From Aulosira sp. ZfuVER01 (lineage in GTDB: Bacteria; Cyanobacteriota; Cyanobacteriia; Cyanobacteriales; Nostocaceae): DNA of 64,000 nucleotides. The notes under the pieces are model-generated. The model was not told where the DNA came from. It saw only the letters and a list, made by a program, of their open reading frames with translations, and searched no databases. Positions 26,474 through 64,000 of this stretch are shown in pieces; within the stretch, counting starts at the first letter, position 1; every line of letters begins with the position of its first letter. The DNA is taken from NCBI GenBank assembly GCA_034530615.2, contig JAVRCV020000033.1, positions 32,001 through 96,000 of the forward strand, in the 5' to 3' direction. A program made the position numbers and the translations under genes.

Positions 26474-26478
26474 TTCTA

Positions 26479-29885: not shown

Positions 29886-29907
29886 GGAACCTCCGTGTAG
29901 AGGTTCC
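29886..29907. terminator. Hairpin downstream of hisG
   Basis: GGAACCTC-N6-GAGGTTCC. Confidence 0.45.
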
Positions 29908-29943
29908 TCTGCCTTTGAAATTCTGTTTTGAGCTACAAGACGA

Positions 29944-30588: not shown

Positions 30589-30665
30589 GATCGTTCTTGG
30601 TATCCTTGGCATATCGGCGGTTCAATAATATTGAGAATATCTCGATATGCTGACCAATAAGCAGT

Positions 30666-46505: not shown

Positions 46506-47735
46506 TTAAACATTAGCTAAAGCGGCTCCAGGTACTAATTCAACTTTCACCCAGCCTGGTTGCCGTTTGTCAAACGCTTTATATGCATCAAGAACTGACA
46601 TTAGCGGTTCGACTTGGGTTAGAACTTTTGTCGGGTCTACTGTGCCATTACGAACTAAATCCACCAAAGTAGGAATATATTTGCGGTGATTACAATTACC
46701 CATATTGATAGTGAGATTTTTGTTCATCGCCATACCAATAGGAAAGAAATTATGGCTGGGTGGGTAAACTCCAATAATCGAAAGTGTACCAGCTTTAGCT
46801 AAAGCTTCAACCGCCCATTCCAAAGCTTGAGAAGGCGCATTACCGGGATGCCAATTGCCATTTTGTGGATTAGTTTTAGGCGCAATTTGTTGTAACTGCT
46901 GCTGAAATTGTTGTGCTTCTTTACGTGCTTTTTCCGCCGCCGGGCCACTGTCAGGCGCATTCGCATCTACACCAACTGCATCAATGGCTCGATCTACACC
47001 AATTCCTCCAGTTAGTTCGTGAATGGCTTCAATTGGATCTTCGGCATTATAATCGATGACTTCTGCACCCAAATCACGCGCCATTTCTAAGCGTGAGGGA
47101 ATTGTATCTACGGCGATAATCCGTCCTGCACCAAATAGCCTAGCACTAACGATCGCAAACTGTCCCACAGGGCCACAACCAAATATAGCTACTGTGTCTC
47201 CTGGTGTAATCTCTGCAATATCAGCTCCAAAGTAAGCCGTCGGGAAGATGTCAGACAACAGAATTGCTTGGTCGTCTGTGACTTCTTTTGGCAGCTTGAC
47301 TAACCCCGCATTGGCATAAGGAATCCGAGCATATTCGGCTTGCAATCCATCAAAGGGGCCTGCTGCTTCCGGCCCGCCAAAAAAAGCTGTCCCAGCGTTA
47401 TGTCCGTGGGGATTAGCATTATCACATTGAGCGTGATAACCTGTGCGACAGTAAGAACAGTAACCACAGGCAATAGTTGAAGGAACGACAACGCGATCGC
47501 CTACTTTAAAATTCCGCACATTGGAACCAATCTCTTCAATAATTCCAACTCCTTCATGTCCTAAAATTGTACCAGGTTTCATTCCTGTGAATGTTCCCCG
47601 AATCATGTGTAAATCTGTGCCACAAATTGCACTAGAAGTCAGCCGAATAATGGCATCTGTTGGCTCTTTAATTTTTGGTTCTGGGACATTATCTAAGCGA
47701 ATATCTCCAATTCTATGAAAGACAACTGCTTTCAT
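46506..47735 (-). CDS. Zn-dependent MDR dehydrogenase (formaldehyde-dehydrogenase-like)
   Basis: CGTD, GHE, CGYCSYC..C, LSDIFPT, GCGPVG. Confidence 0.93.
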   Translation of the reverse strand: MKAVVFHRIGDIRLDNVPEPKIKEPTDAIIRLTSSAICGTDLHMIRGTFTGMKPGTILGHEGVGIIEEIGSNVRNFKVGDRVVVPSTIACGYCSYCRTGYHAQCDNANPHGHNAGTAFFGGPEAAGPFDGLQAEYARIPYANAGLVKLPKEVTDDQAILLSDIFPTAYFGADIAEITPGDTVAIFGCGPVGQFAIVSARLFGAGRIIAVDTIPSRLEMARDLGAEVIDYNAEDPIEAIHELTGGIGVDRAIDAVGVDANAPDSGPAAEKARKEAQQFQQQLQQIAPKTNPQNGNWHPGNAPSQALEWAVEALAKAGTLSIIGVYPPSHNFFPIGMAMNKNLTINMGNCNHRKYIPTLVDLVRNGTVDPTKVLTQVEPLMSVLDAYKAFDKRQPGWVKVELVPGAALANV

Positions 47736-48412: not shown

Positions 48413-48844
48413 ATGCAAAATATCCACCCGATGTTTGTTCATTTTCCTTTAGCCTTACTTTCTGTAGGCTTACTTTTTGATATTCTTGGTTATTTTCTGA
48501 AAAAGCAATCCTTATCTAGTGCTGGATGGTGGTGTTTTTCTTTAGGTGTTCTATCAGCGATTGTCACGGTATTTACAGGAATGCAAGCCGAACATTCAGT
48601 TAGAGTTACTGGAGAAGCCCATGAAATTTTAGAGAATCACGAACACTTCCAAATAACTTCTACGGTAGTGTTTGTAGTATTGGGGATTTGGCGCAGTATC
48701 ACCAGGGAAGGTATACCAAAATTTGCCATTATTTATTTTGTCATTGCGGCGATCGCAGTCGGTGCAATTTTCTACGGCTCTCACTATGGCGGAGAATTAG
48801 TGTATGAACATGGTGTGGGTACAGCCGTACAGCCGCCTATATAG
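48413..48844 (+). CDS. DUF2231 membrane protein
   Basis: HPMFVHFP, four TM, HYGGELVY.HGVG. Confidence 0.88.
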   Translation: MQNIHPMFVHFPLALLSVGLLFDILGYFLKKQSLSSAGWWCFSLGVLSAIVTVFTGMQAEHSVRVTGEAHEILENHEHFQITSTVVFVVLGIWRSITREGIPKFAIIYFVIAAIAVGAIFYGSHYGGELVYEHGVGTAVQPPI

Positions 48845-49086: not shown

Positions 49087-49527
49087 TTACTCCATACTTG
49101 GTGTCTCGTCAAATTGCACCATCATCAGGACAGCTGGCGCATCACCTACTGTTCCAGACAAATGACCCTTATGCCCATGTGCGTCCTCTTTCGTTCCCTG
49201 ATCTCCGCCAAATGAAATTTCGCCAGGCCCCATCTCTACTCGCTGTCCGTCCATAGTTTCCACAAACCAGTGCCCTGAAAGCGGTACAATCCACTGAGGC
49301 TTCGGGTTTTCATGCCAGTTTCCCACCCATCCTACTGGTAAAACAGTATACGTAATTGTGGCACCAGGCTGCTTCAATTTAGCCAGCCATTGAGGAGAGG
49401 TATCTGGTGCTATACCTTTTTGAATGAAATCCTCAATCTGACGGCGGGACTGGTGACTTACACCGTCTTGATCAGTCCAAACATACCAGTAGTCAATTGT
49501 CGGTTTGCGCGATTGATTATTCTGCAT
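49087..49527 (-). CDS. Cupin domain protein
   Basis: WHENPKPQW, MGPGEISFGGDQ, GH.SG; ATG at 49527 with AGAGG RBS. Confidence 0.85.
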   Translation of the reverse strand: MQNNQSRKPTIDYWYVWTDQDGVSHQSRRQIEDFIQKGIAPDTSPQWLAKLKQPGATITYTVLPVGWVGNWHENPKPQWIVPLSGHWFVETMDGQRVEMGPGEISFGGDQGTKEDAHGHKGHLSGTVGDAPAVLMMVQFDETPSME

Positions 49528-49570: not shown

Positions 49571-50044
49571 TTATTGGATAATGCCTGGTTGTACTGGTCT
49601 AACTCTGACTTTACCTGTACAAGCATTAATTGTTTCTGGCAAAGTGAAATGGTGGTAGGCGTTTGGCGGCGTGATTTCAATCTTCACAGAGGTTGGACAA
49701 GACTGACCAACATCTGTAATGTGGTTGTAAGCAATATCGAATGAAGCTTGCCCATTTGGGGCTAAAGTCACTTGTTGTAGAGACTGCTGTTTTGCAGAAT
49801 ATGGGTTTGAGGAACGTATCACTTTCACGCCTTTTAGCGGCTGATTTTTAGAATCTAGCAACTCAAATCCCGGATAACCATAGAGGTTGCAAGGCAATGA
49901 GCTTTTATTAGTAAAAGCATAAATAATGGCAACCTTTCCTGCACCAGCATTTGTAGATACTTTACGTACAGATAATTGTTCAGTTTGGCAACTTGGAGGA
50001 TGAGAAGCAGAGTTAGTTTGAGGGCTAGAACGTTCTGTAGTCAC
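49571..50044 (-). CDS. DUF4232 domain protein, possibly missing its N-terminus
   Basis: C...QLS, TN.S..PC.L.GYP, VTLAP...ASF; in-frame stop upstream and no signal peptide. Confidence 0.7.
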   Translation of the reverse strand: MTTERSSPQTNSASHPPSCQTEQLSVRKVSTNAGAGKVAIIYAFTNKSSLPCNLYGYPGFELLDSKNQPLKGVKVIRSSNPYSAKQQSLQQVTLAPNGQASFDIAYNHITDVGQSCPTSVKIEITPPNAYHHFTLPETINACTGKVRVRPVQPGIIQ

Positions 50045-50092: not shown

Positions 50093-52483
50093 CTAATTAA
50101 CTGAAACTGTATAATTACGCTCTTCCCATTTATTACTATCAACCCAGAAAAATGTAAAGCTAACTGTTTGTTGTTGAGCAGATACAGGAATATCAACGAA
50201 ATTCAATCCTAATTTTGTGGCAGTAGAAGGCGTATCTTGTGTAGTTTGCCAGTTATCATCTGACCAGTGCAACTGAAAATATTCTAAAGCTTGAATTCGC
50301 AATGTCTGGTCTTTTTTGACTTGCTTTATTTGGCGGTTAAACTTCCAAATTTCTAATGATTTACACTGCTTTCTTTCACCTAAATATCGATTCGCTACTT
50401 CTGGAATAAAATCAAAAACCTGACCATCATTAGTTGACCGCAGCAGTTTGATATACTCGGCGTGCGCCCACATTAAAGGCATTGCTGAACCTGTGGGTTT
50501 TCCTAAATACATATGAACATCAGGTTTATCGGCTTCATCCCAAACTTGTTCTGGTAGCAAACAAGTTTCTGAAGCAAATCCTTCCATCGCTTTGATATAT
50601 GTTTTGACATCACCACCAGCGGCTAATTCATAGTGTCCTCGTTCTCCTGTTAAAAGAGGCCAAGCACGTCCTTTACCCCAATCAACATAAGGCTCTCCAT
50701 TTTCTTGCTGTCCGTAACCGTCGTGATTGTAACGATGCCAACAAGGCCCGACTGGTGTATCTACTTTTAAGACTGCATCAATTACCTTGACAGAATCAAC
50801 AATAATTGGATCGTTGGGTTTACGAATTCCATAACGCACCAATTGTAAAAACCCGCCATCGACAATTTCTTTTGCAGGAAATTCTGTTGGTTCCCCTGGT
50901 GGCTGGCTAGCGATGAAAATAGTTCCTTGGTTTGGATTTTCGTTAGGTTGAGGATTATTAATCTCTGTAGGAGTAATCCGAATATAATGCCGTTTGATTC
51001 CAGGAACTAGAGTGCCTTCAGTAGTTACTGTCCAGTCTTCAATGTGAGATTCTAAAAAATCTGCGTATTCTTCGATGAATTGCGCTGTTGCTTCATCACC
51101 GATTTCACGCACAAATTGCGCCGCGCAGATTAAGCCAGCAATATTGGCTGCTAGTGTAGAAGGTGAATAACCGCTACATTCCTCCCAGCGTTCTTGTTGG
51201 GTAGCAGGGCCATGACGAATTAAATAACCCGCAGCCCGTAAAATCATGGGATAAATATCAAAGTTTAGTGGTACATTTTCCTGATGTAAAAGCCATGCTA
51301 GAAGAATCGGAAATGCTACTTCATCTAGTTGGATGCCTTTCCAATAGGGTTCGCCATCAACCCAGAAATTTTGCGCAAATCCGCCGTCTTCCTGTTGACT
51401 GGTAGCAAGATAAATCAGCGATCGCACTGCGGTATCAGTTTCCCCAGCGGCCACTAAACCTGCTACACTGCTCACCATATCCCGCGTCCAGACTAGGTGA
51501 TATCCTCCTTGGTCTTGGTCATCTTTAGCTTCACCCCAAGGTATAGCCATAGATGCAATCAAAGCACCAGGATAAGTTTTATCTTCATGCGCCAACAATA
51601 GACTAACGCTGTTGTGATACAACTTTCCTCGATCGTAGGAACTATTTTCTAACGGTTTGATGTCGCTACGCGATCGCTTCCACTGTTCGTTGTATTGCTG
51701 CTTTTGCTGTTCAAAAGGAATATTGAGCGACTGAAACAATGTGGAAATTGCATTGTGCAGTGTTGTACCGAATGCCAATCCTAAAGTAAACTCTTTACTG
51801 GCATTGAGATTTAGTTTTCCAGTCAAAGCCAAGTTGCCATCTAGAGCACGATCGAACTCCCAATCCATCAGAAAATTATCAGCTAAATCTGTCCAGCCAT
51901 CGCTTTGTCCAACATAGCCACAGGAAAGACGAGTAAACGGAACTGTTGCGCCTAGTGCTAACCAAGTTCCTCCTTTTTCTGCTACGAGAATATTTTTTCC
52001 AGCTACTTCTACCGCGTAACCATTATTACCTCTACCGCTAACTTCCAGATGCGGCGCACACAAAGCGTATAGCTGAAGTTGGGAAATAAAATCCCGATCT
52101 CCCGTTAATTTTGTGTGCTGTAAAATACAGGATAAATGCGGATCGGCGATCGCTTCCTTAATCACGGCATAACGCCCTTGGGGATCGGAATTAGTAATGC
52201 GGTATCCTAAGCCATAAGTCCACAGATGTTCTACTTTCGATTCTAAATGGCGTTTCTCTTCGTGGAAAAAGCTTTTGCCATCAGAAATTAGATATTGCAA
52301 ATCCCGAATTTGGGGTCTATCTACTGTAGGATGGTAGACCTCAGTGACAATGCCGTTCCAGACAGTAAACCAAACGCGACTGGAGGTAGAGTAGGCTGTT
52401 CCGACTGCATCTTTATTCGCATGAGTCCATCGCGGATCTATACCTGGTGAGCCAAAAGCCTGTGCTTGACTAAGAATTTTCAT
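50093..52483 (-). CDS. GH15 glucoamylase/glucodextranase
   Basis: GYHLVWTRD, QLDE, QERWEE, LPEQVW, AMPLMWAHAEY. Confidence 0.93.
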   Translation of the reverse strand: MKILSQAQAFGSPGIDPRWTHANKDAVGTAYSTSSRVWFTVWNGIVTEVYHPTVDRPQIRDLQYLISDGKSFFHEEKRHLESKVEHLWTYGLGYRITNSDPQGRYAVIKEAIADPHLSCILQHTKLTGDRDFISQLQLYALCAPHLEVSGRGNNGYAVEVAGKNILVAEKGGTWLALGATVPFTRLSCGYVGQSDGWTDLADNFLMDWEFDRALDGNLALTGKLNLNASKEFTLGLAFGTTLHNAISTLFQSLNIPFEQQKQQYNEQWKRSRSDIKPLENSSYDRGKLYHNSVSLLLAHEDKTYPGALIASMAIPWGEAKDDQDQGGYHLVWTRDMVSSVAGLVAAGETDTAVRSLIYLATSQQEDGGFAQNFWVDGEPYWKGIQLDEVAFPILLAWLLHQENVPLNFDIYPMILRAAGYLIRHGPATQQERWEECSGYSPSTLAANIAGLICAAQFVREIGDEATAQFIEEYADFLESHIEDWTVTTEGTLVPGIKRHYIRITPTEINNPQPNENPNQGTIFIASQPPGEPTEFPAKEIVDGGFLQLVRYGIRKPNDPIIVDSVKVIDAVLKVDTPVGPCWHRYNHDGYGQQENGEPYVDWGKGRAWPLLTGERGHYELAAGGDVKTYIKAMEGFASETCLLPEQVWDEADKPDVHMYLGKPTGSAMPLMWAHAEYIKLLRSTNDGQVFDFIPEVANRYLGERKQCKSLEIWKFNRQIKQVKKDQTLRIQALEYFQLHWSDDNWQTTQDTPSTATKLGLNFVDIPVSAQQQTVSFTFFWVDSNKWEERNYTVSVN

Positions 52484-52569
52484 GATTTAGCTTTGAGTAG
52501 CTTTTTGGTTATTTTTTTTGATAACTATTGATAGTTTTTTCAAAAAGTAAGATTGCAAATACAGAGAGT

Positions 52570-53508
52570 TCATGGAGATTTTTGAGAATATTTACAAGTA
52601 GCGGCTAAGGATTTAGCTTCAATAAAAATTTGTTTAATTTCAGGATGTTTTTGGCGTATTTTGGCTTCTAATCTATCTACTGTTAATGCTATTTCTTCAC
52701 CTGTGAGTTTCTTAGAAAATTGAATTTCTAAGTTGAGTAATACTTCCTGAGGAGCAAGCTGCATTGTGAGTACACGTAATACATCTTGGACTCCCGGTTC
52801 GGATTTAGACAGAGAACGAATATTATTTATAGTTTGAGGATTGGCACTTTCACCAACTAATAATCCTTTGCTTTCAATAGCTAGTAATACTGCAACAATG
52901 GCTAAAATAATACCAATAATAATTGAGGCAATACCATCAAAATAAATATTGTTAAATAAATGTCCTAAGAATATTCCTAATAAAGCTACAATCAAACCTA
53001 AAATTGCTGCTGAATCTTCAAATAATACAGTAAATACTGTAGGGTCTTTACTATTTTTAATTGCTTGCCAAAAACTTTGATTGCCTTTTGTGGGCAGAAA
53101 CTCTTTTAAAGCTACAGTCCATGAAGACCCCTCAAATAAAATCGCTACACCCAACACAATATAATTCCACATTGGGTCTTCTAAAGGAGTGGGGTTAATT
53201 ACATGAGTAATTCCTTCATAAATTGACATTCCGCCACCAATGGCAAAGATAAGAATAGCAACAATTAAAGTCCAGAAATAAAGTTCTTGCCCATAACCAA
53301 AGGGATGGCTATCATCTGCTGGCTTTTGGCTCATACGAATTCCCAGCAGCAGTAAAAGTTGGTCGCCAGTATCTACAACCGAATGAATACCTTCAGATAT
53401 CATCGCGGAACTGCCGGTAATGGCTGCGGCGATAAATTTAGTAATAGCGATCGCTAAATTAGCACCCATCGCTGCAAAAATTGTTTTTTTAGAAGAATCA
53501 GTTGCCAT
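52570..53508 (-). CDS. Cation diffusion facilitator family transporter
   Basis: SEGIHSVVD, HPFGYG, FEDSAA. Confidence 0.92.
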   Translation of the reverse strand: MATDSSKKTIFAAMGANLAIAITKFIAAAITGSSAMISEGIHSVVDTGDQLLLLLGIRMSQKPADDSHPFGYGQELYFWTLIVAILIFAIGGGMSIYEGITHVINPTPLEDPMWNYIVLGVAILFEGSSWTVALKEFLPTKGNQSFWQAIKNSKDPTVFTVLFEDSAAILGLIVALLGIFLGHLFNNIYFDGIASIIIGIILAIVAVLLAIESKGLLVGESANPQTINNIRSLSKSEPGVQDVLRVLTMQLAPQEVLLNLEIQFSKKLTGEEIALTVDRLEAKIRQKHPEIKQIFIEAKSLAATCKYSQKSP

Positions 53509-53603
53509 GATACTAATTCATAATTCGTAATTAAAAAAATCAAATTTAATCTACTAAGTTTATGGATTTGAATTTGTTTTCTATTTTTGGCGAATTTATA
53601 TAG

Positions 53604-55724
53604 CTATTCAGAAACTTGTAGTTCGCCGTCAATATGAGTAACGTCCCATCGGGTTTTTTCTTCCTCCCGCCAAAAACGCAATGATACATTAGCGTCTCCC
53701 ACACTCAGATTTTTCAATTCCAAATCTGGCAAGCACTCTGGTAGATTAGGCTGTACCTTTAACTTTCGTTGTGGTGCATCGGCTTCCAGTCCCAAAATGC
53801 TGCGAATAAGTAAGAAAATTGAACCAGCTGCCCAGGCTTGAGGTATATTGGCATCTGGATATGGAACTGGAAAGTTATCATCTCGGCGTTCAATTCCTGC
53901 AAATAATTCTGGCATTCGCCCAGCCTGAAAATAACTAGCAGCCGCAAAAATACCCTCAGCAATACGGTTAGCTTGTTTGTAGTAGCCGTATCGCTTCAAT
54001 CCTGCGGCAATAATAGAGTTATCGTGTGGCCAAACACTTCCCCTTTGATAACTAATTGGGTTATAAGCTAGATTTTGCGCCGAAAGAGTCCGCACACCCC
54101 AACCACACCACATATCTGGCTGGAAAAGTCGCTCCACAACTTTTTGTGCCCTTTCTTGGGGTACAATACCAGACCATAGTAGATGACCGGGATTTGAAGC
54201 AATTGATTGAATTTGCTGCTTGTTGTTATCTAAGCCAAGACAGTAAAAGCCTTTCTCTTCCATCCAAAAGCGATCGTTAAAACGTTGATAAAGTGCTTTG
54301 GCTTTTTGACGTAGCTTTTTCGCTGTTTCTTGTTCTCCCCACACCTCATAAATAAAAGCTGCTTTTCGCCAAGCATCGTAAACGTAACCTTGTACCTCAC
54401 ACAAAGCTATTGGTGGCTCAACTAACTTACCATTTGGGTAAACCATTGATTCACCCGAATCTTTCCAACCTTGATTGCGTAATCCGTGAGTAGAACGAGT
54501 TAAATACTCAACAAACCCGTCATCATCAAAATCGCCATATTTATCAATCCAAGTTAATGCCTTTTCTAGTGGTGCGCGACATTCATTAAGCATACTCACA
54601 TCGGCGTTCCAGCTATAAGTCTCAGCCAGGGTAACAATCCACAGAATAGTAGTATCTACCGTTCCGTAATAGGGATTGTATGGGAGTTGATTGAGTTTAG
54701 TTAATTCGTCACGCCGCAATTCATGCAGCATCTTGCCAGGTTGAGCATCATGCCAGTCATCTAACTCAGTTGCTTGTAACTGAGCCAACCTTAAAAGCGT
54801 ACCACGAGCAAATTCGTGATAAACCGCCATCGTTTGTAAGCTAGCAATAATTGAGTCACGTCCAAAGACTGCCATAAACCAGGGAATACCCGCAGCCGGC
54901 ATCCAAAATTGATGCCCATTATCTTCTAGCTGAATTCGTAACGCCCCCATATCAACTAGCGCTTGTTGATAAAATCCGCTAATCTCGGCATTAGACGATC
55001 GCAACTTTGTCGCATTAGTCAGAAATTCATCGCTGACCTTTCCGGCTGCTGTTGTATGAGGTACAGCACAAGTTTGTTGCGGTTTGAGAACATCCCCATT
55101 AGCTAAGGCTGTAAAATTGATACAGCTGTGCCATGTTTTGCCAGGATTAATCACAACATTAAACATTAAACGACCGTTGGCATAGCTGGCTTGTGAAGTC
55201 AGGCAAACTGGCTCAGTCATGATGCCTCGGACAAAAGAACTGCTGCGGTATTTGGTAGTGAGTACACCATCTTTCCATACTGTTTCAGTATTACCCCGCG
55301 TTACGATGTTCTTGGCTTTGACTTCAAAGATATCTGCAAAGTCAGAACGAATCGCCAGCATTAATTGAAATTCAACTGGTTCTGAATGATAGTTAGCGAT
55401 TTCGATATCTTCGTGCATCCCTCCTACAATGTCGCGCCGGATGGTTATAAACAAACTGCCGTAAGGGAAATTACCGTTAATAGTAGGAAATACTTGATTA
55501 GTAAATTGATAAAGCGCACTATGATGATTGATATTGCTAGAAGCTAGCAGCAAAAGTCGGTAGCGATTAAGAGAAATTTCGTAGTAAGAAATTAGACGTG
55601 TGTCACGCACAAAAAAGCCTTGCGCTTGATTATCGTCTATGGAACCATCACTAGCTGTTACCAGAAATGAGGAACCATCGTTGATTGTGATTAAACCAGG
55701 GTTGACAGTAACTTGTGTGGGCAT
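53604..55724 (-). CDS. Amylo-alpha-1,6-glucosidase (glycogen debranching enzyme family)
   Basis: AGIPWF..FGRD, PGKMLHE, NQGWKDS, EVQGY, GSVWPHDN, PQAWAA; start at MPTQV. Confidence 0.92.
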   Translation of the reverse strand: MPTQVTVNPGLITINDGSSFLVTASDGSIDDNQAQGFFVRDTRLISYYEISLNRYRLLLLASSNINHHSALYQFTNQVFPTINGNFPYGSLFITIRRDIVGGMHEDIEIANYHSEPVEFQLMLAIRSDFADIFEVKAKNIVTRGNTETVWKDGVLTTKYRSSSFVRGIMTEPVCLTSQASYANGRLMFNVVINPGKTWHSCINFTALANGDVLKPQQTCAVPHTTAAGKVSDEFLTNATKLRSSNAEISGFYQQALVDMGALRIQLEDNGHQFWMPAAGIPWFMAVFGRDSIIASLQTMAVYHEFARGTLLRLAQLQATELDDWHDAQPGKMLHELRRDELTKLNQLPYNPYYGTVDTTILWIVTLAETYSWNADVSMLNECRAPLEKALTWIDKYGDFDDDGFVEYLTRSTHGLRNQGWKDSGESMVYPNGKLVEPPIALCEVQGYVYDAWRKAAFIYEVWGEQETAKKLRQKAKALYQRFNDRFWMEEKGFYCLGLDNNKQQIQSIASNPGHLLWSGIVPQERAQKVVERLFQPDMWCGWGVRTLSAQNLAYNPISYQRGSVWPHDNSIIAAGLKRYGYYKQANRIAEGIFAAASYFQAGRMPELFAGIERRDDNFPVPYPDANIPQAWAAGSIFLLIRSILGLEADAPQRKLKVQPNLPECLPDLELKNLSVGDANVSLRFWREEEKTRWDVTHIDGELQVSE

Positions 55725-55765
55725 AGGGCATAGGGCATAGGGCATTGGGCATAGGGCATTGGGCA
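55719..55765 (+). repeat. STRR heptamer array (GGGCATA/T) x6
   Basis: Direct reading; contains the start codon of the debranching gene. Confidence 0.9.
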
Positions 55766-55867
55766 AGTAGTGAACAAAAGGGGAAGAGAGGCACAAAGGT
55801 ACAGGGAGAGTATTTCTGTAATTGTCCTCCTCTGCACCCCTGCTTCCTCTGCTTCCTTGTCCCCCTT

Positions 55868-56680
55868 CTAGCCATTCTCTGTAAAACCTGGATATAAGGT
55901 CATGCCACCATCTACAAATAGGGTTGTACCGTTGACATAATCAGAATCATCCGAAGCCAGCCACACTGCTGCTTTGGCAATGTCTTCTACTTCACCTACT
56001 CGTTTTGCTGGGATCAATTGGAGTAACTTCGCCTCGGCTTGTGGGATATCCCAAGCTGATTTATTTATAGGCGTTTTGATTGCACCAGGGGCAATGCTAT
56101 TAACGCGGATTTTATGAGGGGCAAGTTCTTGGGCAATACTTTGCATCATCATATTGATACCGCCTTTGCTGGCAGCATAATTTACATGACCCGCCCAAGG
56201 AATTACCTGATGTACTGAACTGATACAAATAATTTTGCCTGCGGCACAAGAGATATGAGGTTGCACGCCTCGGCGCAAAAACTCTTTTGCTGCTTCCCTA
56301 GCACACAGAAATTGCCCTGTGAGATTTACCCCAATCACTGCATTCCAATGGTCGAGGCTCATATCTACAAAAGCTGAGTCTTTTTGCATACCTGCATTGT
56401 TCACCAATATGTCAATAGTTCCAAATTGCTGAAGTGTTTGCTTAAACATCTCTTTGACTTGGTCTTCTTGACTAACATCTGCTTGAATAGCAAAAGCTTC
56501 ACCATTGTTGACTTTAATATCATCAACAATTTTTTGGGCTGCTTCAGCTTCAGAATGATAGTTAATAACTACTGCTGCACCAGATGAAGCTAAATTGCGA
56601 GCTATAGCTTCACCAATGCCAGAACTAGCACCTGTTACAAGTGCTTTTTGACCTTTGAGTAAGTAAGGAGAATAGCTCAT
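55868..56680 (-). CDS. SDR oxidoreductase, glucose 1-dehydrogenase type
   Basis: TGASSGIG, NNAG, SSVHQVIPW, YAASK, PGAIKTPIN, DGGMTLYP. Confidence 0.88.
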   Translation of the reverse strand: MSYSPYLLKGQKALVTGASSGIGEAIARNLASSGAAVVINYHSEAEAAQKIVDDIKVNNGEAFAIQADVSQEDQVKEMFKQTLQQFGTIDILVNNAGMQKDSAFVDMSLDHWNAVIGVNLTGQFLCAREAAKEFLRRGVQPHISCAAGKIICISSVHQVIPWAGHVNYAASKGGINMMMQSIAQELAPHKIRVNSIAPGAIKTPINKSAWDIPQAEAKLLQLIPAKRVGEVEDIAKAAVWLASDDSDYVNGTTLFVDGGMTLYPGFTENG

Positions 56681-57290
56681 AATGTTTCTTGAAAATATAT
56701 ATAGATTCTTAGTGGTGCTTGTACCAAAAAATATATCTTTTATTAGTTTTTTCTTGTTAAGTATTCATGCATTTAAAAATTTAATAACTGATGTAAAAAC
56801 TGTTGCTATTGATGTATATAACCAAGAAAATACTGCTGAACTTGTGTCAAAAATTACGCGATGTTAATTTGATTTTTGATGACTATTGCTTTGATTCTGG
56901 CATTAATTTAAAGGTTTAATGTGGCGATCGCCTCTAGCCATCGGATGAATAAACACTTATATCCCAAGGTCTAGAAGATTTTCATTTAATTTTCATAATT
57001 GTATGGAATCTTTAAAAGATGAAGGTAACAACAGTTGTTTTGCTAACAAAACTTAGATTTTATGAATTTTTTTGTATGTATTTTGTGATAAAAAATATAG
57101 TATTTAACAAAAATAAATAAATTATGATGAGAAATCATCCTTACGATAGTATTTTTTATTCTATTTCTTAGCTAAGAATACTTTTGTGGACAGCAATTTT
57201 CAAAGTTAAAACTCAATAACAAATTTGATTTTGGTCAAAATTAACTGATATTGCAGCTTCTGGTTATTACTAATTACTAAGGAGAAAGCG

Positions 57291-57785
57291 ATGCCTGCTC
57301 TGGCTCTCAATAGCCAAAATCTCCCATACCCCGACCCATTACACCCAATTATTGTCCATTTCGTGATTGCAATGGTGTTTTTCTCATTCGTTTGCGATGT
57401 GGTGGGTTATTTCACTCGCAATACACGTTTGTTTGAGGTCGGTTTCTGGAATATGTTTGTGGCGGCGATCGCAATTTTTGTCGCCATAATTTTGGGACAG
57501 TTTGAAGCCGGTCTAGCACAAACCTATCCAGCAGCCCAGCCCACACTTAATTTTCACACAGTCATGGGTTGGTCACTAGGGGCGATTGTGGCAGCAATTA
57601 CAGCTTGGCGGTTTGTAATTCGCGATCGCAATCCTCTCAAAGTTCCGCCTGCTTACCTGGGTGTGGCAACGTTTTTGATTTGCCTGGTGTTCTTGCAAGT
57701 ATATCTGGGAAGCAAATTATTTTGGGTATACGGCTTCCACGTCGAGCCTGTTGTCCAAGCCATGAAGCAGGGAGTTTCGCCATGA
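57291..57785 (+). CDS. DUF2231 membrane protein (ARTO operon gene 1)
   Basis: LHPIIVHF, TM helices; AAGGAG RBS. Confidence 0.88.
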   Translation: MPALALNSQNLPYPDPLHPIIVHFVIAMVFFSFVCDVVGYFTRNTRLFEVGFWNMFVAAIAIFVAIILGQFEAGLAQTYPAAQPTLNFHTVMGWSLGAIVAAITAWRFVIRDRNPLKVPPAYLGVATFLICLVFLQVYLGSKLFWVYGFHVEPVVQAMKQGVSP

Positions 57786-58387
57786 ACTCGCAACTAATTG
57801 ACTCTTTAGGGTTGAAGTTAGGCGCTAACGGACTACCCTACGAAATTCCCATGCACCCACAGTTGGTGCATTTAACATTGGGTTTGTTCATCATCGGTAT
57901 CTTGTTTGATATAGCAGGAGTTATTTTTCTCATTGAAAGACCAATCTTCAAATTTTTGGGTCTTACCGCCATTCGTTCTGGCTTCTTTGATGTTGGTTGG
58001 TACAACCTGCTAGCAGCAGCTATTGTGACATTTTTCACCGTTGCATTCGGTTTTTTCGAGCTACTGCTAGCAAACCCTGCGATCGATCAAAAAAGCGCTT
58101 GGGGATTGAGTCCTGGTTTGACAATGCTTTTGCATGGTTTGGGTGGTGTTTTGTTGCTGGGGATTATTGTCGCCATGACCGTATGGAGAGGTTTGCAACG
58201 CTATCGTTGGCGCAAAGATGCCTCCCGACAGGTGCAGTGGAGTTACTTATTAGCAGGGATTGCAATCATGGGTATTTTGTACGTTCACGGAACTTTAGGA
58301 GCGCAATTAGGAGAGGAGTTTGGCATTCACGTTACAGCAGCTAAGTTAATCCCAGAGGGTACAAACCCAAATTTGCTATTTAAATAA
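57782..58387 (+). CDS. DUF2231 membrane protein (ARTO operon gene 2)
   Basis: MHPQLVHL, HGTLGAQL...FGIH; ATGA overlap with the previous stop at 57782-57785. Confidence 0.88.
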   Translation: MNSQLIDSLGLKLGANGLPYEIPMHPQLVHLTLGLFIIGILFDIAGVIFLIERPIFKFLGLTAIRSGFFDVGWYNLLAAAIVTFFTVAFGFFELLLANPAIDQKSAWGLSPGLTMLLHGLGGVLLLGIIVAMTVWRGLQRYRWRKDASRQVQWSYLLAGIAIMGILYVHGTLGAQLGEEFGIHVTAAKLIPEGTNPNLLFK

Positions 58388-58389
58388 TT

Positions 58390-59307
58390 ATGCTGAGATT
58401 TTTGGAGTATTTATTAATAGCTGGTTGTATAGCAGTGCTGCTCGTTATCAGTCATGGAATTGGGCAGTTGGCCTATTCTTGGATGCCACCTGAAGCTACA
58501 GAAGAAGCGCAAAAGGTAGATAGTTTGTTTAGCTTTTTAACTTCAATTGGCGCGTTTATTATTCTTGGGCTTGTGGGCATGATGGTGTACTCGGTAATTT
58601 TTTTTCGTGCCGCCAAATATGACTACAGCGAGGGACACCCATCTAGAGGCGATCTCAGGCTAGAAATCTTATGGACAGCGACTCCAACCGTGCTAGTTTT
58701 ATGGATTGCTTTCCAAGGCTTCAATATTTATCAGCAATTAAATGTTCTGGGTTTGGGGCAAATCGTACATTTGCATTCACCTCTAGAAGAACCAGCCTAT
58801 GCGGTAGCTAGTGCTGACAAACCTAAACCAGCTGCGGAAACTGTTGAGGTTTTTGTCAAGCAGTGGGATTGGACTTTCCGCTATCCCAATAATGTTACTA
58901 GTAATGAATTGCACTTACCTGTAAACCTTCGGACTCGCCTCAATATGCACGCCAAGGACGTACTCCACAGTTTTTATGTCCCTGAGTTCCGCTTACAGCA
59001 ATATATTGTGCCTGGACGGAACATTGACCTTGTAGTTACACCCATTCGCACGGGGGAATACAAGCTCAAAGATGCACTATTTAGCGGTACTTACTTTGCT
59101 TTGATGGATGCCAAAGTCCGCGTTGAATCCCTTGAGCAATATAACCAGTGGTTAACCACAGCAGAAAAAGAACCAACAAGCATCAACAATCAGGCAGTAG
59201 CTGAGTATACCCAACCGCCAAAGACATTGTTTAAGAGTGGCTGGTACACTGTTGCACCTGCTCAAGAAGCGATCGCCAATGAAAGGAAAGTAATGAATGA
59301 CACATGA
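58390..59307 (+). CDS. ctaC: Heme-copper oxidase subunit II, ARTO type (no CuA)
   Basis: LEILWT, QWDW.FRY, DVLHSFYVP; CuA loop replaced by DALFSGTYFALM. Confidence 0.92.
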   Translation: MLRFLEYLLIAGCIAVLLVISHGIGQLAYSWMPPEATEEAQKVDSLFSFLTSIGAFIILGLVGMMVYSVIFFRAAKYDYSEGHPSRGDLRLEILWTATPTVLVLWIAFQGFNIYQQLNVLGLGQIVHLHSPLEEPAYAVASADKPKPAAETVEVFVKQWDWTFRYPNNVTSNELHLPVNLRTRLNMHAKDVLHSFYVPEFRLQQYIVPGRNIDLVVTPIRTGEYKLKDALFSGTYFALMDAKVRVESLEQYNQWLTTAEKEPTSINNQAVAEYTQPPKTLFKSGWYTVAPAQEAIANERKVMNDT

Positions 59308-60973
59308 TTTTAGCGAAAATCTCACCAATGATAGAGAGCCGGAAAACGAGCCTGAGAATAACTGGCGACGATACTTGAGCTTCAGCACCGACCATAAAGC
59401 GATCGGCGTTCAGTACATGGTGATGACTTTCATTTTCTTTTTGGTTGGCGGACTGTTGGCGATGCTCATTCGTGCCGAACTGATTACGCCAGCATCAAAT
59501 GTGGTCGATCGCCCCCTGTACAACGGCTTATTTACATTGCATGGGACAATCATGATTTTTTTATGGATTATCCCATTTAATGCAGGTATCTCTAACTACT
59601 TAGTCCCCTTGATGATTGGCGCGCGGGATATGGCCTTTCCCCTGCTCAACGCCATCTCTTTCTGGATTCTGCCACCAAGCGGTATTTTATTAATATCTAG
59701 CTTCTTACTACCCAATGGTACAGCGCAGTCCGGCTGGTGGTCATATCCACCAATTAGTCTGCAAGTTCCTCCAGGTCAGCCAATTAACGGTGAATTTATT
59801 TGGATTGTAAGTATAGTCCTGATTGGCATCTCTTCAATTATGGGGGCTGTTAATTTTGTGACTACCATCTTTTGGATGCGGGCACCAGGAATGACCTTTT
59901 TTCGGATGCCTGTGTTTGTTTGGTCAGTTCTCAGTGCCCAGTTGTTGCAGCTAATTAATTTGCCTGCCCTCACAGGTGCGTTGATACTATTGTTATTTGA
60001 CCTCAGCTTTGGTACGCCATTCTTCAAACCCTTAGAGAATGGCGACCCGATCATTTACCAGCATCTATTCTGGTTCTACTCCCACCCCGCAGTTTACATT
60101 ATGGCACTACCTGCCTTCGGTATTTTTGCGGAGGTTCTGCCAGCCTTTTCCCGTAATCCCCTATTTGGCTATCGGTCATTAGCTGTTGCTTCTTTAGGTA
60201 TCGCTGTAGTCAGCATTTTCGTGTGGGTGCATCATATGTTCACCAGTGCTACCCCTGGCTGGATGCGGATGTTATTTATGGTGACATCAATGTTAGTTGC
60301 TGTGCCCACTGGTGTTAAGGCATTTGGTTGGACTGCGACAATTTGGAAGAGTAAGCTGCACCTAGAAACACCTATGCTGTTTGCTATGGGAGGTGCTGCC
60401 ATGTTTCTGCTCGGTGGTGTTACTGGGGTGATGCTCGCAGCAGTACCATTTGATATTCACGTCCACAATACCTACTTTATAGTGGGGCACTTCCACTACA
60501 TTGTTTTTAACACCATCACGATGGCAATCTTTGCTGCCATTTACTTTTGGTTTCCGAAGATTACTGGACGAATGTATGCTGAAGGCTGGGGCAAATTACA
60601 TTTCTGGTTAACTTTTATCGGTGCTAACTTGACTTTCTTCCCTATGCTCCCACTAGGTTTACAGGGAATGGTACGCCGAATTTCTTCCTATGACCCACGC
60701 TATCAAGGGTGGAATGTGATTGCTAGTCTAGGAGGATTTTTGTTAGGAGTATCAATACTACCTTTTATTGCCAATATGGTGGTTTCTTGCTTATACGGAC
60801 AGAGAGCAAGTAACAATCCCTGGCTGGCTACAGGGTTGGAATGGACAACCACCTCACCACCACCACAAGATAACTTTGAAGAAATTCCGGTTGTCAAAAG
60901 ACCTCCCTACGATTATGGCGATCCCAAATACTCAGTGATTGAACCTCCCGATTATCATCAGCAAGAACACTAA
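59297..60973 (+). CDS. ctaD: Heme-copper oxidase subunit I
   Basis: HGTIM, WFYSHPAVY, WVHH, HFH ligands; PTGVK. Confidence 0.96.
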   Translation: MTHDFSENLTNDREPENEPENNWRRYLSFSTDHKAIGVQYMVMTFIFFLVGGLLAMLIRAELITPASNVVDRPLYNGLFTLHGTIMIFLWIIPFNAGISNYLVPLMIGARDMAFPLLNAISFWILPPSGILLISSFLLPNGTAQSGWWSYPPISLQVPPGQPINGEFIWIVSIVLIGISSIMGAVNFVTTIFWMRAPGMTFFRMPVFVWSVLSAQLLQLINLPALTGALILLLFDLSFGTPFFKPLENGDPIIYQHLFWFYSHPAVYIMALPAFGIFAEVLPAFSRNPLFGYRSLAVASLGIAVVSIFVWVHHMFTSATPGWMRMLFMVTSMLVAVPTGVKAFGWTATIWKSKLHLETPMLFAMGGAAMFLLGGVTGVMLAAVPFDIHVHNTYFIVGHFHYIVFNTITMAIFAAIYFWFPKITGRMYAEGWGKLHFWLTFIGANLTFFPMLPLGLQGMVRRISSYDPRYQGWNVIASLGGFLLGVSILPFIANMVVSCLYGQRASNNPWLATGLEWTTTSPPPQDNFEEIPVVKRPPYDYGDPKYSVIEPPDYHQQEH

Positions 60974-61016
60974 GAAGTCAGTTACCAAGATGGGGGAGAT
61001 GAGGGGAGTTTTTTCA

Positions 61017-61072
61017 CAATGCCCAATGACCAATGACCAATGCCCAATAACAAATGAACAATGACTAATGAC
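61017..61072 (+). repeat. STRR heptamer array (CAATGAC-like) x8
   Basis: Direct reading. Confidence 0.88.
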
Positions 61073-61756
61073 AAAAATTATGAACCTATGAACCGTGGCG
61101 TTATTCATGTAGATGAAAGTCCTATCCCTTTGGAACGATGGCGACAATACCTACCAAAGTGGCTAAAGCGTTTCCTACCAATTCGTGGTGGACGTTCTGA
61201 AGACCATCATGGTAAGGGGATGTTTGGGTTTACCGTCTTCCTGTTGTCGGAAAGCATAATTTTTTTGAGTTTTTTCTTCACATACATTGCCCTGCGATTG
61301 ACTCACTCAAGAAATTGGCTACCACCAGGTGTTTCGGGGCCGGAATTGTCTACTTTTGTAATTATTAACACTGTAGTTTTACTCTCCAGTAGCTTTGTCA
61401 TTCAACCAGCAGAAAATGCTCTCAAGCATCATCAGTTAAATAAATTTCGCTGGTTATGGCTAATGACGATTTGCATGGGAACCTATTTCTTAATTGGTCA
61501 AGGAATTGAATGGAGTCAACTTGATTTTGGGTTAAGTACGGGACTAGTAGGTTCTACATTTTATCTATTAACAGGTTTCCACGGTTTGCACGTTCTAACA
61601 GGTGTGAGTCTACAGATAATTATGCTGGTTCGCTCTTTTATTAGAGGTAACTACAATAAAGGTCACTTTGGTGTAAGTGCAACCACTTTATTTTGGCACT
61701 TTGTAGACGTAATTTGGGTTTTACTATTCTCACTTCTCTATATTTGGCACACATAA
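61061..61756 (+). CDS. ctaE: Heme-copper oxidase subunit III. Start 61061 or 61088.
   Basis: FLLSE, NTVVLLSSS, TGFHGLHV, FWHFVDVIW. Confidence 0.95.
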   Translation: MTNDKNYEPMNRGVIHVDESPIPLERWRQYLPKWLKRFLPIRGGRSEDHHGKGMFGFTVFLLSESIIFLSFFFTYIALRLTHSRNWLPPGVSGPELSTFVIINTVVLLSSSFVIQPAENALKHHQLNKFRWLWLMTICMGTYFLIGQGIEWSQLDFGLSTGLVGSTFYLLTGFHGLHVLTGVSLQIIMLVRSFIRGNYNKGHFGVSATTLFWHFVDVIWVLLFSLLYIWHT

Positions 61757-61777
61757 AAACATCTTTGGAGTATTTTT

Positions 61778-62023
61778 ATGAATTTATATCTTCAAGACAT
61801 CCCAGCTTCAGATTTGCCTCCAAAAGCAATTCAAGAAACTCCAGCACCAGGCAAAGACCCCTTAATTGCACGTGGTTTACAAAAAGAACAGTACGTTGCT
61901 ATTAGCGTATTGGCGATTATTCTTGTTGCTGCTGTGGGATTTTTTAGCCGCAGAGTTGAATACGCTATTATGTTTGCTTTTGCTCTCAGCATTGTTTTTA
62001 TAGCGTTTGTTTTACTTATTTAG
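61778..62023 (+). CDS. Small two-TM membrane protein downstream of ctaE
   Basis: GGAG RBS; 21-bp gap from ctaE; two hydrophobic helices. Confidence 0.7.
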   Translation: MNLYLQDIPASDLPPKAIQETPAPGKDPLIARGLQKEQYVAISVLAIILVAAVGFFSRRVEYAIMFAFALSIVFIAFVLLI

Positions 62024-62050
62024 ATAAGCCTCGGTCTTATTTTTTAGTTA

Positions 62051-62144
62051 ACTATAGCAGTCATAACAAATAGATCCCCGACTTCTTGAGAAGTCGGGGA
62101 TCTAAGCCTCTCGATATTTGCAAATCAAATAGGATTGCTATAGT
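62051..62144. mobile_element. MITE-like element containing a 16-bp palindrome
   Basis: Ends ACTATAGCAGTC / GATTGCTATAGT; inner TAGATCCCCGACTTCT-TG-AGAAGTCGGGGATCTA. Confidence 0.7.
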
Positions 62145-62220
62145 GACAACATAATTGCACAACCAAGGGATGAAAATCTTTTATTCCCTGTTCCCTATTC
62201 TCAAGTTAGGAGATATCTGA

Positions 62221-63603
62221 ATGAATAGCCCAGTTTATCAAACTGTGATTGTCGGCGGTGGTTTTACCGGATTATTTACAGCATTACACCTAGCTCACGA
62301 ACACTATCCTCGCTCTGTAATTTTGATTGATAAAAATGAGCGATTTTGTTTTAAGCCTTTACTGTATGAATATTTCGATGGCGAGATGGATAGTGTGCAA
62401 GTAGTACCACGATTTTCGGAATTACTTCGAGGTAGTGGTGTGATTTTTGTTCAGGATTCAGTGCAGTCAATAGACTTGCATCAACGGGAAGTCAAATTAG
62501 CTTCGGGAAACTCCTACAACTACAGTAACTTAGTCTTAGCTTTGGGAAGTGTTACTGGCTATCATCACATTGAAGGTGCTCAAGAAAATGCTTTTCCTTT
62601 CTGGACACAAGCAGATGCGATCGCACTTGACAAACATTTACGCGACTGTTTGCAAAAAGCCTTGCAAACTGAAGATCTAGAACAACGTCGGCAATTACTC
62701 ACAGTAGTTGTGGTTGGTGGTGGTGCTTCCGGTATCGAAATGGCAGCTACCTTGGCTGATTTTTTGCCACATTGGTATAGTGCTTTAGGCGGCAATCAAA
62801 GTGAAATTCGTGTAGTATTGCTCAATCACGGTACAGAAATTCTCGATGGCGATATTAACGATCCACTACGTCCGATCGCTGAACAGGAATTAAAAAAACG
62901 TATTGTTCCGATAGAAATCATTCTTGAAGCAGAAGCAACAGCCGTTCGCCCCACCGCAGTTGAATATAAGTCTGGCGATCGCGTTGAAACACTACCAACT
63001 TACACAACAATCTGGACAGCTGGCACTTCTACTAATCCATTGATTCAAGATTTACCCATTCCTTCAGAACATCGAGATCAACACGATCGCCTCCTCGTCA
63101 CTCCGACGATGCAACTACTCGACTTTCCTGAAGTCTTTGCAGGTGGTGATTGTGCAGCTGTACAAGATACTTCCTTACCACCTACAGCCCAAGTAGCGTA
63201 TCAACAAGGAGCTAATATTGCCACTAATTTGAAAGCGATCGCGCTCGGAGAAGAACCCGAACCGAAGACAGTTAATATCCGGGGAACCCTGTTGAAGTTG
63301 GGGGTAAATGATGCTGCTGCTAACTTGTTCAATGTTTTTGAAGTTGCAGGCGAACCGGCACACTTAATTCGTCAAGGCACTTATTTAACGCTATTACCAA
63401 CGCCAATTCATGACTTCAAAGCCACAACTGAATGGGTAAATGAAGAGATTTTTCACCATCACCTTGATTCTCAAGATGTAGGTAAAAAAGTGGTGCAAGC
63501 GGTGGAATTAGTTGGTGCAGGAATCGTTGGTGTTTTAGTTACGAGAAAATTATTAAAAATGTTGGGTGATGACGATAAAAAAGACGAAGTAATGGAGAGT
63601 TAA
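62221..63603 (+). CDS. Type II NAD(P)H:quinone oxidoreductase (NDH-2) family flavoprotein
   Basis: GGGFTG, FKPLLYE, GGGASGIEMA, IWTAG, GGDCA, PPTAQVAYQQG. Confidence 0.9.
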   Translation: MNSPVYQTVIVGGGFTGLFTALHLAHEHYPRSVILIDKNERFCFKPLLYEYFDGEMDSVQVVPRFSELLRGSGVIFVQDSVQSIDLHQREVKLASGNSYNYSNLVLALGSVTGYHHIEGAQENAFPFWTQADAIALDKHLRDCLQKALQTEDLEQRRQLLTVVVVGGGASGIEMAATLADFLPHWYSALGGNQSEIRVVLLNHGTEILDGDINDPLRPIAEQELKKRIVPIEIILEAEATAVRPTAVEYKSGDRVETLPTYTTIWTAGTSTNPLIQDLPIPSEHRDQHDRLLVTPTMQLLDFPEVFAGGDCAAVQDTSLPPTAQVAYQQGANIATNLKAIALGEEPEPKTVNIRGTLLKLGVNDAAANLFNVFEVAGEPAHLIRQGTYLTLLPTPIHDFKATTEWVNEEIFHHHLDSQDVGKKVVQAVELVGAGIVGVLVTRKLLKMLGDDDKKDEVMES

Positions 63604-63646
63604 GCTCAATACTCATAAAACATTAACAGTACAGAGGCTATTGAAT

Positions 63647-64000
63647 ATGTCTAGCCAAACCGATGTACAGGTACAAAGAATTAGAGCTATTGGATTAACA
63701 GTGACAAACTGCGATCGCTCTTGGCAATTTTATACAAAAGCCCTTGGTTTTGAACTCGTTAGCGATATTACTGTTGAAAGAAAGGATTATAACGAACTGG
63801 AAGGTGTAAGGGGGGCAAAAATTCGCATTATCTCTTTGCGATTAAGAGATGAACTCATTGAATTGATGGAATATCTCAACATTCACTCTCAACCTATACC
63901 CAGCGATTCCCAAAGTAATGACCTGTGGTTTCAACATCTAGCGATTGTGGTGAGTGATATGGATCGCGCCTATTCGCATTTGCGTTCATTTCCAATTGAA
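63647..64000 (+). CDS. VOC/glyoxalase family protein, runs off the window
   Basis: Manual translation MSSQTDVQVQRIRAIGLTV...FYTKALGF...IELMEY...SNDLWFQHLAIVVSDMDRAY. Confidence 0.88.
   Translation, partial: MSSQTDVQVQRIRAIGLTVTNCDRSWQFYTKALGFELVSDITVERKDYNELEGVRGAKIRIISLRLRDELIELMEYLNIHSQPIPSDSQSNDLWFQHLAIVVSDMDRAYSHLRSFPIE

Follow-up and report, generated by a model that had tools for sequence, protein, structure and literature searches.

Previous work has described, in separate organisms, several components that meet in one stretch of DNA from the cyanobacterium Aulosira sp. ZfuVER01, in which genes for releasing and oxidizing glucose diverge from genes for a short respiratory chain. On the respiratory side, a plasma-membrane chain of a type-II NAD(P)H dehydrogenase (NDH-2) and an alternative respiratory terminal oxidase (ARTO) is known (PMC9175036, PMC6553663, PMC7796093), as are ARTO operons led by two small genes, and the oxidase Qox is reported to oxidize plastoquinol (PMC6616624). 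On the sugar side, a short-chain dehydrogenase/reductase (SDR) acting as glucose dehydrogenase (GDH) has been described together with gluconokinase, and the substrate of the SDR-type GDH is given as beta-glucose (PMC8062543). According to a 2026 preprint (bioRxiv 10.64898/2026.04.01.715859), two cyanobacterial GDHs, from Lyngbya and Spirulina, picked by their similarity to Bacillus GDH, are active with NADP+ and NAD+, and more so with NADP+; in Synechocystis the same work detected no GDH/gluconokinase bypass. In the glycosidase family GH176, the closest solved relative of the protein found here, TgAMY, is reported to debranch maltodextrins (PMC9142091), whereas another account describes an exo-type pocket and states that alpha-1,6 cleavage lacks a direct demonstration (PMC13671375). 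The same source describes another GH176 member as an inverting alpha-1,2-glucosidase whose kojibiose-binding residues TgAMY shares, classes GH176 and glucoamylase as both inverting, and counts most GH176 clusters as uncharacterized. Anabaena is reported to produce alpha-1,2 glucosylsucroses (PMC9909042).

Here, we analyze a 64,000-nucleotide stretch (the window; positions 32,001–96,000 of contig C33, from a genome that is 99.99% complete) and find that it carries a real, conserved and apparently undescribed modular gene cluster. We propose, at a probability of about 50%, that the cluster would serve as a stress-induced route from glucosides to gluconate, in which NDH-2 and quinone would hand the electrons on to an ARTO and O2. 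A gap of 610 bp separates its two divergent arms, and every open reading frame (ORF) listed by an earlier annotation made from the DNA letters alone (the sequence-only reading) is present, intact and correctly placed (Table 1), with the DUF4232 and cupin genes lying left of 50093, where that reading began the locus.

The SDR heads the leftward arm, and its assignment to the glucose-dehydrogenase type held: the nine best PDB matches are all Bacillus-type GDH sequences (best E 4e-69), and the protein keeps the catalytic Ser, Tyr and Lys together with the His and Trp of the SSVHxxIPW motif. Residues N40, S155, H157, W162, Y168, K172 and N206 are invariant among 73 cyanobacterial copies. The protein scores 301 bits against PRK08936 (cut-off 420) and 247 bits against PRK07231 (cut-off 215), and is 82% identical to WP_445105333 from Lyngbya aestuarii, annotated as glucose 1-dehydrogenase. 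We regard it as a credible GDH. GlgX, two GlgP, glucokinase, gluconokinase and Gnd are all encoded elsewhere in the genome, which thus combines a GDH-type SDR, gluconokinase and Gnd as the GDH/gluconokinase bypass requires, and gluconokinase occurs in 15/15 relatives with a close SDR orthologue. Elsewhere in the genome, another GDH-like SDR (42% identical) adjoins a lactonase-like gene (C68:1122-3032), and the gluconokinase gene points away from genes for a LacI-like regulator and an NDH-2-like protein (C8:63041-66112).

Two glycosidases share this arm. The GH15 protein has as its best solved relative the glucoamylase 1LF6 (E 2e-158, aligned from residue 8) and scores 712 bits against TIGR01535, just under the cut-off of 742; it comprises an N-terminal beta domain and a GH15 barrel with both catalytic Glu intact (WEE and EQVW motifs), and shows no apparent signal peptide. 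The second protein, called a debranching enzyme in the sequence-only reading, has an intact gene of another kind: it is homologous to TgAMY, matches 7VMA at E 1e-88, and retains the fixer Asp, catalytic Asp and catalytic Glu of GH176. A GH13-type identity (GlgX/isoamylase, TIGR02100) was ruled out, with the genome's GlgX lying on contig C2, and debranching by GH176 enzymes is itself disputed. Residues R289, D290, H334, E335, W420, D422, W565, E606, Q629 and W631 correspond to the active-site list of the Arthrobacter alpha-1,2-glucosidase A8F5, 10 of whose 11 residues are thus kept (by motif and spacing, Q560 stands where A8F5 has His566), and the active-site residues are invariant in 23–26 close homologues. 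The alpha-1,2 glucosylsucroses of Anabaena are a candidate substrate. A second GH176 gene (C42:13503-17384), whose product is 36% identical and which almost the whole family carries, keeps the His that is replaced by Gln in the window copy; it adjoins a gene that by eye resembles a GT4 glycosyltransferase, and as a pair the two could make and break alpha-1,2 glucosylsucroses. Between the SDR and GH176 genes, 7-bp tandem repeats (55720-55775) stretch the mechanical ORF upstream of the likely GH176 start at 55724.

The rightward arm encodes three oxidase subunits and an NDH-2, in a genome with four heme-copper oxidase operons and five NDH-2-like genes. CtaD has intact heme and CuB histidine motifs. 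CtaC lacks the CuA ligands, which the genome's two cytochrome c oxidase subunits II retain, and the substitutions at these positions (D228, S232, F236) are invariant in 100 homologue matches. We class both the window oxidase and a second oxidase, on contig C55, as ARTOs because both lack the CuA ligands; the latter is called Cox3 type here because of how its operon is laid out and because it is widespread. A quick tree was built from 34 subunit I sequences selected among the loci analyzed, none of them from PCC 7120; genera are intermixed in it, and the window CtaD belongs to a clade of 26 rows (SH-aLRT 96) whose sister is the C55 Cox3 type. Identity as the heterocyst Cox3/Qox orthologue was therefore rejected, and the separate clade indicates that the window oxidase is a second, distinct ARTO.

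The NDH-2 contains two GxGxxG motifs and a quinone-site motif, and its best PDB matches are NDH-2s. An Asn (N202) occupies the cofactor-selecting site in 88/90 homologue matches, while two of the genome's four NDH-2 paralogues carry Glu there; we take the neutral Asn to favor NADPH. The closest paralogue (C29:2080-5677; 51% identical) also has Asn at this site and is followed by genes that by eye are DoxX-like and GMC-like. For the 81-aa membrane protein encoded upstream of the NDH-2 we found no Pfam or NCBIfam match, and the Atlas returned only unnamed cyanobacterial clusters; the protein is present at most loci of CtaC relatives (sample a, below). The perfect 15-bp hairpin between these two genes (62071-62104) is probably a dispersed repeat, given that the genome contains 26 copies of a 14-base segment from it. 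Cytochrome bd subunit I (CydA) was not found in the source genome. A role for the second ARTO as a substitute for cytochrome bd was rejected as a general rule, since CydA occurs in 12/21 family genomes with the second ARTO and 12/16 without it.

We determined how far the arms travel together in three samples: (a) the best 80 of 81 loci with a close relative of CtaC, most of them from Nostocales, counted where the flank sufficed, with a 10-kb flank that undercounts GH15; (b) 60 relatives, 21 of which carry the second ARTO; and (c) 21 SDR-carrying cyanobacterial genomes from overlapping phylum-wide draws of 300 and 400. The samples overlap, and related genomes are non-independent data points. 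The oxidase block is tightly kept, with the DUF2231 pair upstream of ctaC in 70/74 loci and NDH-2 downstream in 67/73 (sample a); NDH-2 is linked to the second ARTO in 17/21 relatives (sample b). In four operons without the pair (L009, L010, L038, L231), ctaC directly faces the SDR or GH15 gene, and the pair is thus not strictly required in cis; at L213, L214 and L232, NDH-2 stands directly upstream of other DUF2231-ARTO operons, so that NDH-2/ARTO pairing is wider than the window arrangement.

The sugar genes are linked to this block in a looser way. Divergent from the second ARTO in sample a we observed the SDR in 32/59 loci, GH15 in 22/59 and GH176 in 13/59, with at least one of the three, fragments included, in 37/59; SDR and GH15 occur without GH176 in 12/59, SDR and GH176 without GH15 in 9/59, and SDR, at least one glucosidase and NDH-2 together in 22/55. 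Within the family, the SDR is found in 15/21 genomes with the second ARTO and in 0/16 without it. Both genes lie within 15 kb of each other in 9/15 relatives that have both, some "unlinked" cases in sample b being close to contig ends, while the SDR lies within 15 kb of a Cox3-type ARTO in 0/11 genomes, the source genome included. Approached from the SDR (sample c, within about 10 kb), ARTO is near in 11/21 genomes, NDH-2 in 9/21, a glucosidase in 16/21 and VOC in 12/21, and SDR, glucosidase, ARTO and NDH-2 occur together in 8/21. The glycosidase beside the SDR varies (GH15 8/21, GH176 7/21, GH63-like 6/21). A sugar gene, the SDR or, in G006 and G008, GH15, is repeatedly head-to-head with the oxidase operon. 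The arms are also linked in other families and in another taxonomic order (L098-L101, L103, L109, L216, L217), and because gene order varies between families the link has survived rearrangement.

These locus counts led us to reject an artefact or chance adjacency: the linkage is more than chance, and it is real but modular. The two-arm arrangement put forward by the sequence-only reading thus stands across families, and the same synteny search shows the arms often apart and the blocks also occurring alone. The exact five-gene glycogen module of that reading fared less well, being rare in all three overlapping samples (6/55 in a, 1/21 in b, 3/21 in c).

The intergenic region has a conserved core in an alignment of 31 such regions and contains a spaced palindrome, TCWAYC-N4-GRTWGA, scoring 14.3 bits at its site in front of the DUF2231 pair. 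The palindrome was first noticed in the island, and the matrix was then trained on the genome without contig C33. Scores of at least 11 bits precede the DUF2231 gene in 49/84 distinct upstream regions across families, compared with 1.5% for shuffles and 5.7% genome-wide, and the palindrome is absent before the Cox3-type C55 operon (0.8 bits). Its genome-wide enrichment (56 versus 14) and the approximately 80 more genes that it precedes than shuffles give are both inflated by training on the same set. Sites in the window lie at 35689, 47958 and 57135, and other target genes look stress-type (by eye, except one GlsB/YeaQ gene). The palindrome supports a separate, probably stress-linked control of the second ARTO, perhaps by a NarL-type regulator. 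A scan for sigma-70 promoters and terminators gave results at chance level (47 versus 46 and 15 versus 15).

Comparison beyond the window revealed a larger cassette, shared across phyla, of SDR, variable glycosidase, lactonase, GMC, DoxX, VOC and cupin. The oxidase/NDH-2 block is a removable element of it, since in several genomes the SDR faces VOC without the DUF2231-ctaCDE-NDH-2 block. On contig C33 the remainder of the VOC gene and an unrelated block are followed by DoxX, SMP-30 lactonase and GMC genes, which in relatives often come directly after VOC. A cyanobacterial GMC orthologue has as its best PDB matches the large subunits of FAD glucose/fructose dehydrogenases (E 9e-36) and conserves three Cys. 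The cupin is near the SDR in 10/21 genomes (sample c), and the CDF transporter occurs at 70% or more of its length in 22/59 loci (sample a).

Copies of the cassette are located on plasmids. We examined 14 of 107 plasmid records, and in the 11 non-cyanobacterial ones a glycosidase is near the SDR in 8, a cyoABCD-like oxidase in 2 (Burkholderiaceae), a DoxX-NDH-2 fusion in 1 (Azospirillum) and none of these in 3. Among the best 80 of 547 confirmed metagenome loci, found with a Paraburkholderia query and hence biased, 5 have an oxidase (two being near-copies of the query cluster) and 5 a DoxX-NDH-2 fusion; the 17 loci of at least 16 kb carry glucosidase (11), GMC (13), VOC (12), DoxX (11), lactonase (6), cupin (6) and oxidase (3). 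At one locus (L143), SDR, GMC, VOC, DoxX, cupin, lactonase and a DoxX-NDH-2 fusion lie beside a CuA-type oxidase, indicating that the partner oxidase need not be a quinol oxidase; no glucosidase match was found in the stretch covered. On a Gloeothece verrucosa plasmid (L119:13412 onward) the last element of the cassette, before a set of phage-like genes, is a DUF2231 match that may be left over from the oxidase operon.

On the reading that we prefer, the locus is the cyanobacterial version of a cross-phylum cassette that would release and oxidize glucose, equipped with a short respiratory chain and probably switched on under stress or dormancy. In the proposed mechanism, cytoplasmic inverting glucosidases, here GH15 and GH176 and elsewhere GH63-like enzymes or trehalase-type GH15, would free beta-glucose from alpha-glucosides such as malto-oligosaccharides, glycogen ends, or stress solutes including alpha-1,2 glucosylsucroses and trehalose. 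The SDR would very probably oxidize the glucose to gluconolactone with NAD(P)+, the SMP-30 lactonase would convert this to gluconate, and the unlinked gluconokinase could then pass the gluconate on to the pentose phosphate pathway. NDH-2, perhaps with GMC, would reduce plastoquinone, to be reoxidized by the CuA-less ARTO with O2, bypassing NDH-1 and cytochrome b6f. The functions of the NDH-2 and ARTO families are established, and from their linkage we infer that electrons would pass from one to the other. That different proteins fill each slot of the cassette (glycosidase, oxidase, NDH-2) in different lineages appears to support the route. We take its yield to be about 4 H+ and about one ATP per glucose, with no upfront kinase step, as an estimate from general stoichiometries. 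As only 2 of the 24 electrons of glucose would be taken for about one ATP, the route would suit start-up or O2 removal, and not bulk catabolism.

The advantage over GlgP that the sequence-only reading saw in a route without ATP input is weak, since GlgP with Pgm and Zwf also yields NADPH without ATP, glycogen phosphorolysis itself being ATP-free. The kinase-free gain therefore applies to free glucose, and with the gain so limited and the glycosidase slot variable, small stress glucosides are as likely a fuel as glycogen. A broader version, which we consider rather unlikely, is that many soil bacteria may carry such a cassette as an undescribed, self-contained "cold-start" module, in which stored stress solutes (alpha-1,2 glucosylsucroses, trehalose, malto-oligosaccharides) would give beta-glucose, an NADP-linked SDR and GMC would feed a dedicated oxidase, and the proton motive force would be rebuilt before ATP is available; in cyanobacteria the second ARTO would then have this task, with GH176 as the missing glucosylsucrose hydrolase.

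Several observations weigh against the glucoside-to-gluconate route. The palindrome is weaker before the SDR, reaching 19/64 regions and 9.2 bits at 56933 in this locus, and its evidence for joint control of both arms is partial. In L221, L222, L227-L230 and L120, the SDR and VOC genes directly diverge from each other and the oxidase block is absent; at 22/59 loci the 10 kb upstream of the ARTO are free of sugar genes (sample a), and 10/21 SDR genomes have no nearby ARTO (sample c). Outside cyanobacteria the oxidase is a minority member, in 5 of the best 80 of 547 metagenome loci and 2/11 plasmid records, and some partner glycosidases are GH39, a family of retaining beta-glycosidases. VOC, cupin and CDF would have no role in the scheme. 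As NAD(P)H diffuses freely as a common pool, linkage does not force coupling. The Lyngbya protein compared with the SDR (WP_445105333) is a different accession from the assayed WP_238987112, and Synechocystis NDH-2s are described as regulatory rather than bioenergetic (PMC6553663).

The main rival is a general-stress island, in which glucose recycling through GDH, gluconokinase and the pentose phosphate pathway and a stress-phase quinol oxidase with NDH-2 would be co-regulated and travel together without electron coupling. We consider this possible yet somewhat unlikely. The neighborhood does carry Zn-dependent alcohol dehydrogenase, GlsB/YeaQ, MscS, AI-2E and sucrose-phosphatase-like HAD genes, the palindrome also precedes many unrelated genes, several of them GlsB/YeaQ-like by eye, and the blocks separate freely; plasmid-borne copies, the intermixed genera of the CtaD tree and the presence of gluconokinase, glucokinase, Gnd, GlgX and two GlgP in the genome point the same way. 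Against an island of this kind, different NDH-2 and oxidase lineages recur beside the same SDR in other phyla, and, among many island genes, a sugar gene is repeatedly head-to-head with the oxidase operon.

Two further explanations appear improbable. A strict route from glycogen to O2, with GH176 debranching and GH15 digesting glycogen in place of GlgP, would suit the closeness of GH15 to a solved glucoamylase, the maltodextrin debranching reported for TgAMY (PMC9142091), and the presence of the full five-gene set at this locus, in G018 and in a small number of other cases. The rarity of that five-gene set argues against it, as do the loci in which the SDR is accompanied by one glycosidase without the other, the exo-type pocket of TgAMY and the stated lack of a direct demonstration of its alpha-1,6 cleavage (PMC13671375), the presence of GlgX and GlgP in the genome, and the ATP-free nature of phosphorolysis. 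Alternatively, the core of SDR, GMC, DoxX, VOC, cupin, lactonase and glycosidase could be a dedicated pathway for another glycoside or oxidized sugar, serving for example detoxification or a keto-sugar product, with the respiratory genes disposing of electrons; we likewise give this a low probability. It would explain VOC and cupin, accords with GMC (13/17), DoxX (11/17) and VOC (12/17) accompanying the SDR far more often than the oxidase does (3/17) in the long metagenome loci among the best 80 of 547, and recalls the genome's second NDH-2 gene beside DoxX-like and GMC genes. Yet it has no nameable substrate, and GMC, DoxX and lactonase lie within 10 kb of the SDR in only 4–5/21 cyanobacterial genomes (sample c). 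The stress-induced route to gluconate remains the reading that we prefer.

An exact-term search of the open-access literature returned no paper that describes either the second ARTO clade or the cluster, including the wider SDR-GMC-DoxX-VOC-cupin-lactonase cassette; the sequence-only reading likewise knew of no description of these genes as one functional unit. The cluster offers a testable role for the second ARTO clade, for the largely uncharacterized GH176 enzymes, and for the GDH bypass, which the 2026 preprint rules out for Synechocystis and shows in vitro for Lyngbya. If the coupling is true, terrestrial cyanobacteria would possess a kinase-free, cytochrome b6f-independent means of energy restart or O2 drawdown.

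Table 1. Features of the two arms, their outer members and the cassette genes beyond the window (window positions, or contig C33 positions where prefixed).
Feature	Position	Strand	Basis and remarks
Zn-dependent alcohol dehydrogenase	46506-47735	-	Pfam ADH_N/ADH_zinc_N; outer, occasional left-arm member
Third DUF2231 membrane protein	48413-48844	+	Pfam PF09990
Cupin	49087-49527	-	Weak Cupin_2 match under cut-off; recurrent cassette member
DUF4232 protein	49571-50044	-	Pfam PF14016; sporadic, 4/59 loci (sample a)
GH15 glucoamylase-type inverting exo-alpha-glucosidase (predicted)	50093-52483	-	PDB, TIGR01535, motifs
CDF metal transporter	52570-53508	-	TIGR01297 above cut-off
GH176-type inverting alpha-glucosidase (predicted), annotated "debranching enzyme"	53604-55724	-	7VMA match, active-site residues
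SDR, glucose 1-dehydrogenase type	55868-56680	-	PDB matches, conserved residues
Divergent intergenic region	56681-57290	.	Conserved core ~56890-57030; palindromes 57135-57150 and 56933 (weak)
DUF2231 protein a	57291-57785	+	Pfam
DUF2231 protein b	57782-58387	+	Pfam
CtaC, ARTO subunit II without CuA	58390-59307	+	Pfam, ligand inspection
CtaD, heme-copper oxidase subunit I, second ARTO clade	59297-60973	+	His motifs, tree
CtaE, subunit III	61061-61756	+	Pfam COX3
81-aa membrane protein, no family, travels with second ARTO	61778-62023	+	
NDH-2, hydrophobic C-terminus	62221-63603	+	PDB matches
Double-domain VOC protein, 321 aa	63641-64000 (window-truncated; end at C33:96606)	+	Core cassette member
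DoxX	C33:110774-111316	-	Beyond window, same contig
SMP-30/gluconolactonase	C33:111313-112218	-	Beyond window; best PDB matches 3E5Z, 3DR2
GMC flavoprotein, three conserved Cys	C33:112713-114314	+	Beyond window, same contig

At the outer left, the Zn-dependent alcohol dehydrogenase adjoins the cassette in loci L012, L045, L064, L119, L228 and L229. Further away, window positions 15801-31355 hold genes unrelated to the module: a transposase, a Ser/Thr-AAA-GAF-His kinase, two PAS/GAF His kinases, MarR, hisG and a response regulator.

Set beside known systems, the window GH176 protein is like TgAMY and Arthrobacter A8F5 in family and in catalytic and fixer residues, and differs from A8F5 by the Gln in place of His566. 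The cassette GMC resembles the large subunits of the FAD glucose/fructose dehydrogenases of Burkholderia and acetic acid bacteria, which oxidize sugar without phosphorylation and pass electrons to a quinol oxidase. Those enzymes face the periplasm and have three subunits, whereas here we saw neither a small subunit nor a cytochrome c subunit, and the predicted enzymes include an NAD(P)-linked SDR and cytoplasmic glucosidases. The cyanobacterial GDH/gluconate kinase bypass, described in vitro for Lyngbya aestuarii and absent in Synechocystis, likewise combines an SDR-type GDH with gluconokinase in one genome; in contrast, the GDH gene here stands in a cluster with genes for glucosidases, a lactonase and respiration, to which the kinase gene is not linked.

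In the plasma-membrane chain of Synechocystis (NdbC and ARTO), NDH-2 and ARTO are both assigned to that membrane (PMC9175036, PMC7796093), whereas here the two form one conserved operon-like block. The cox3/Qox operon of Anabaena sp. PCC 7120 (alr2729-alr2730-coxB3A3C3) has the same layout of two small genes followed by a CuA-less oxidase (PMC6616624), and the C55 Cox3-type copy of the source genome also carries a DUF2231 pair. The PCC 7120 Qox is heterocyst-specific. Compared with the Cox3 type on C55, to which its CtaC is 48% and its CtaD 64% identical, the second ARTO adds the 81-aa protein and NDH-2, the linkage to sugar genes and the upstream palindrome.

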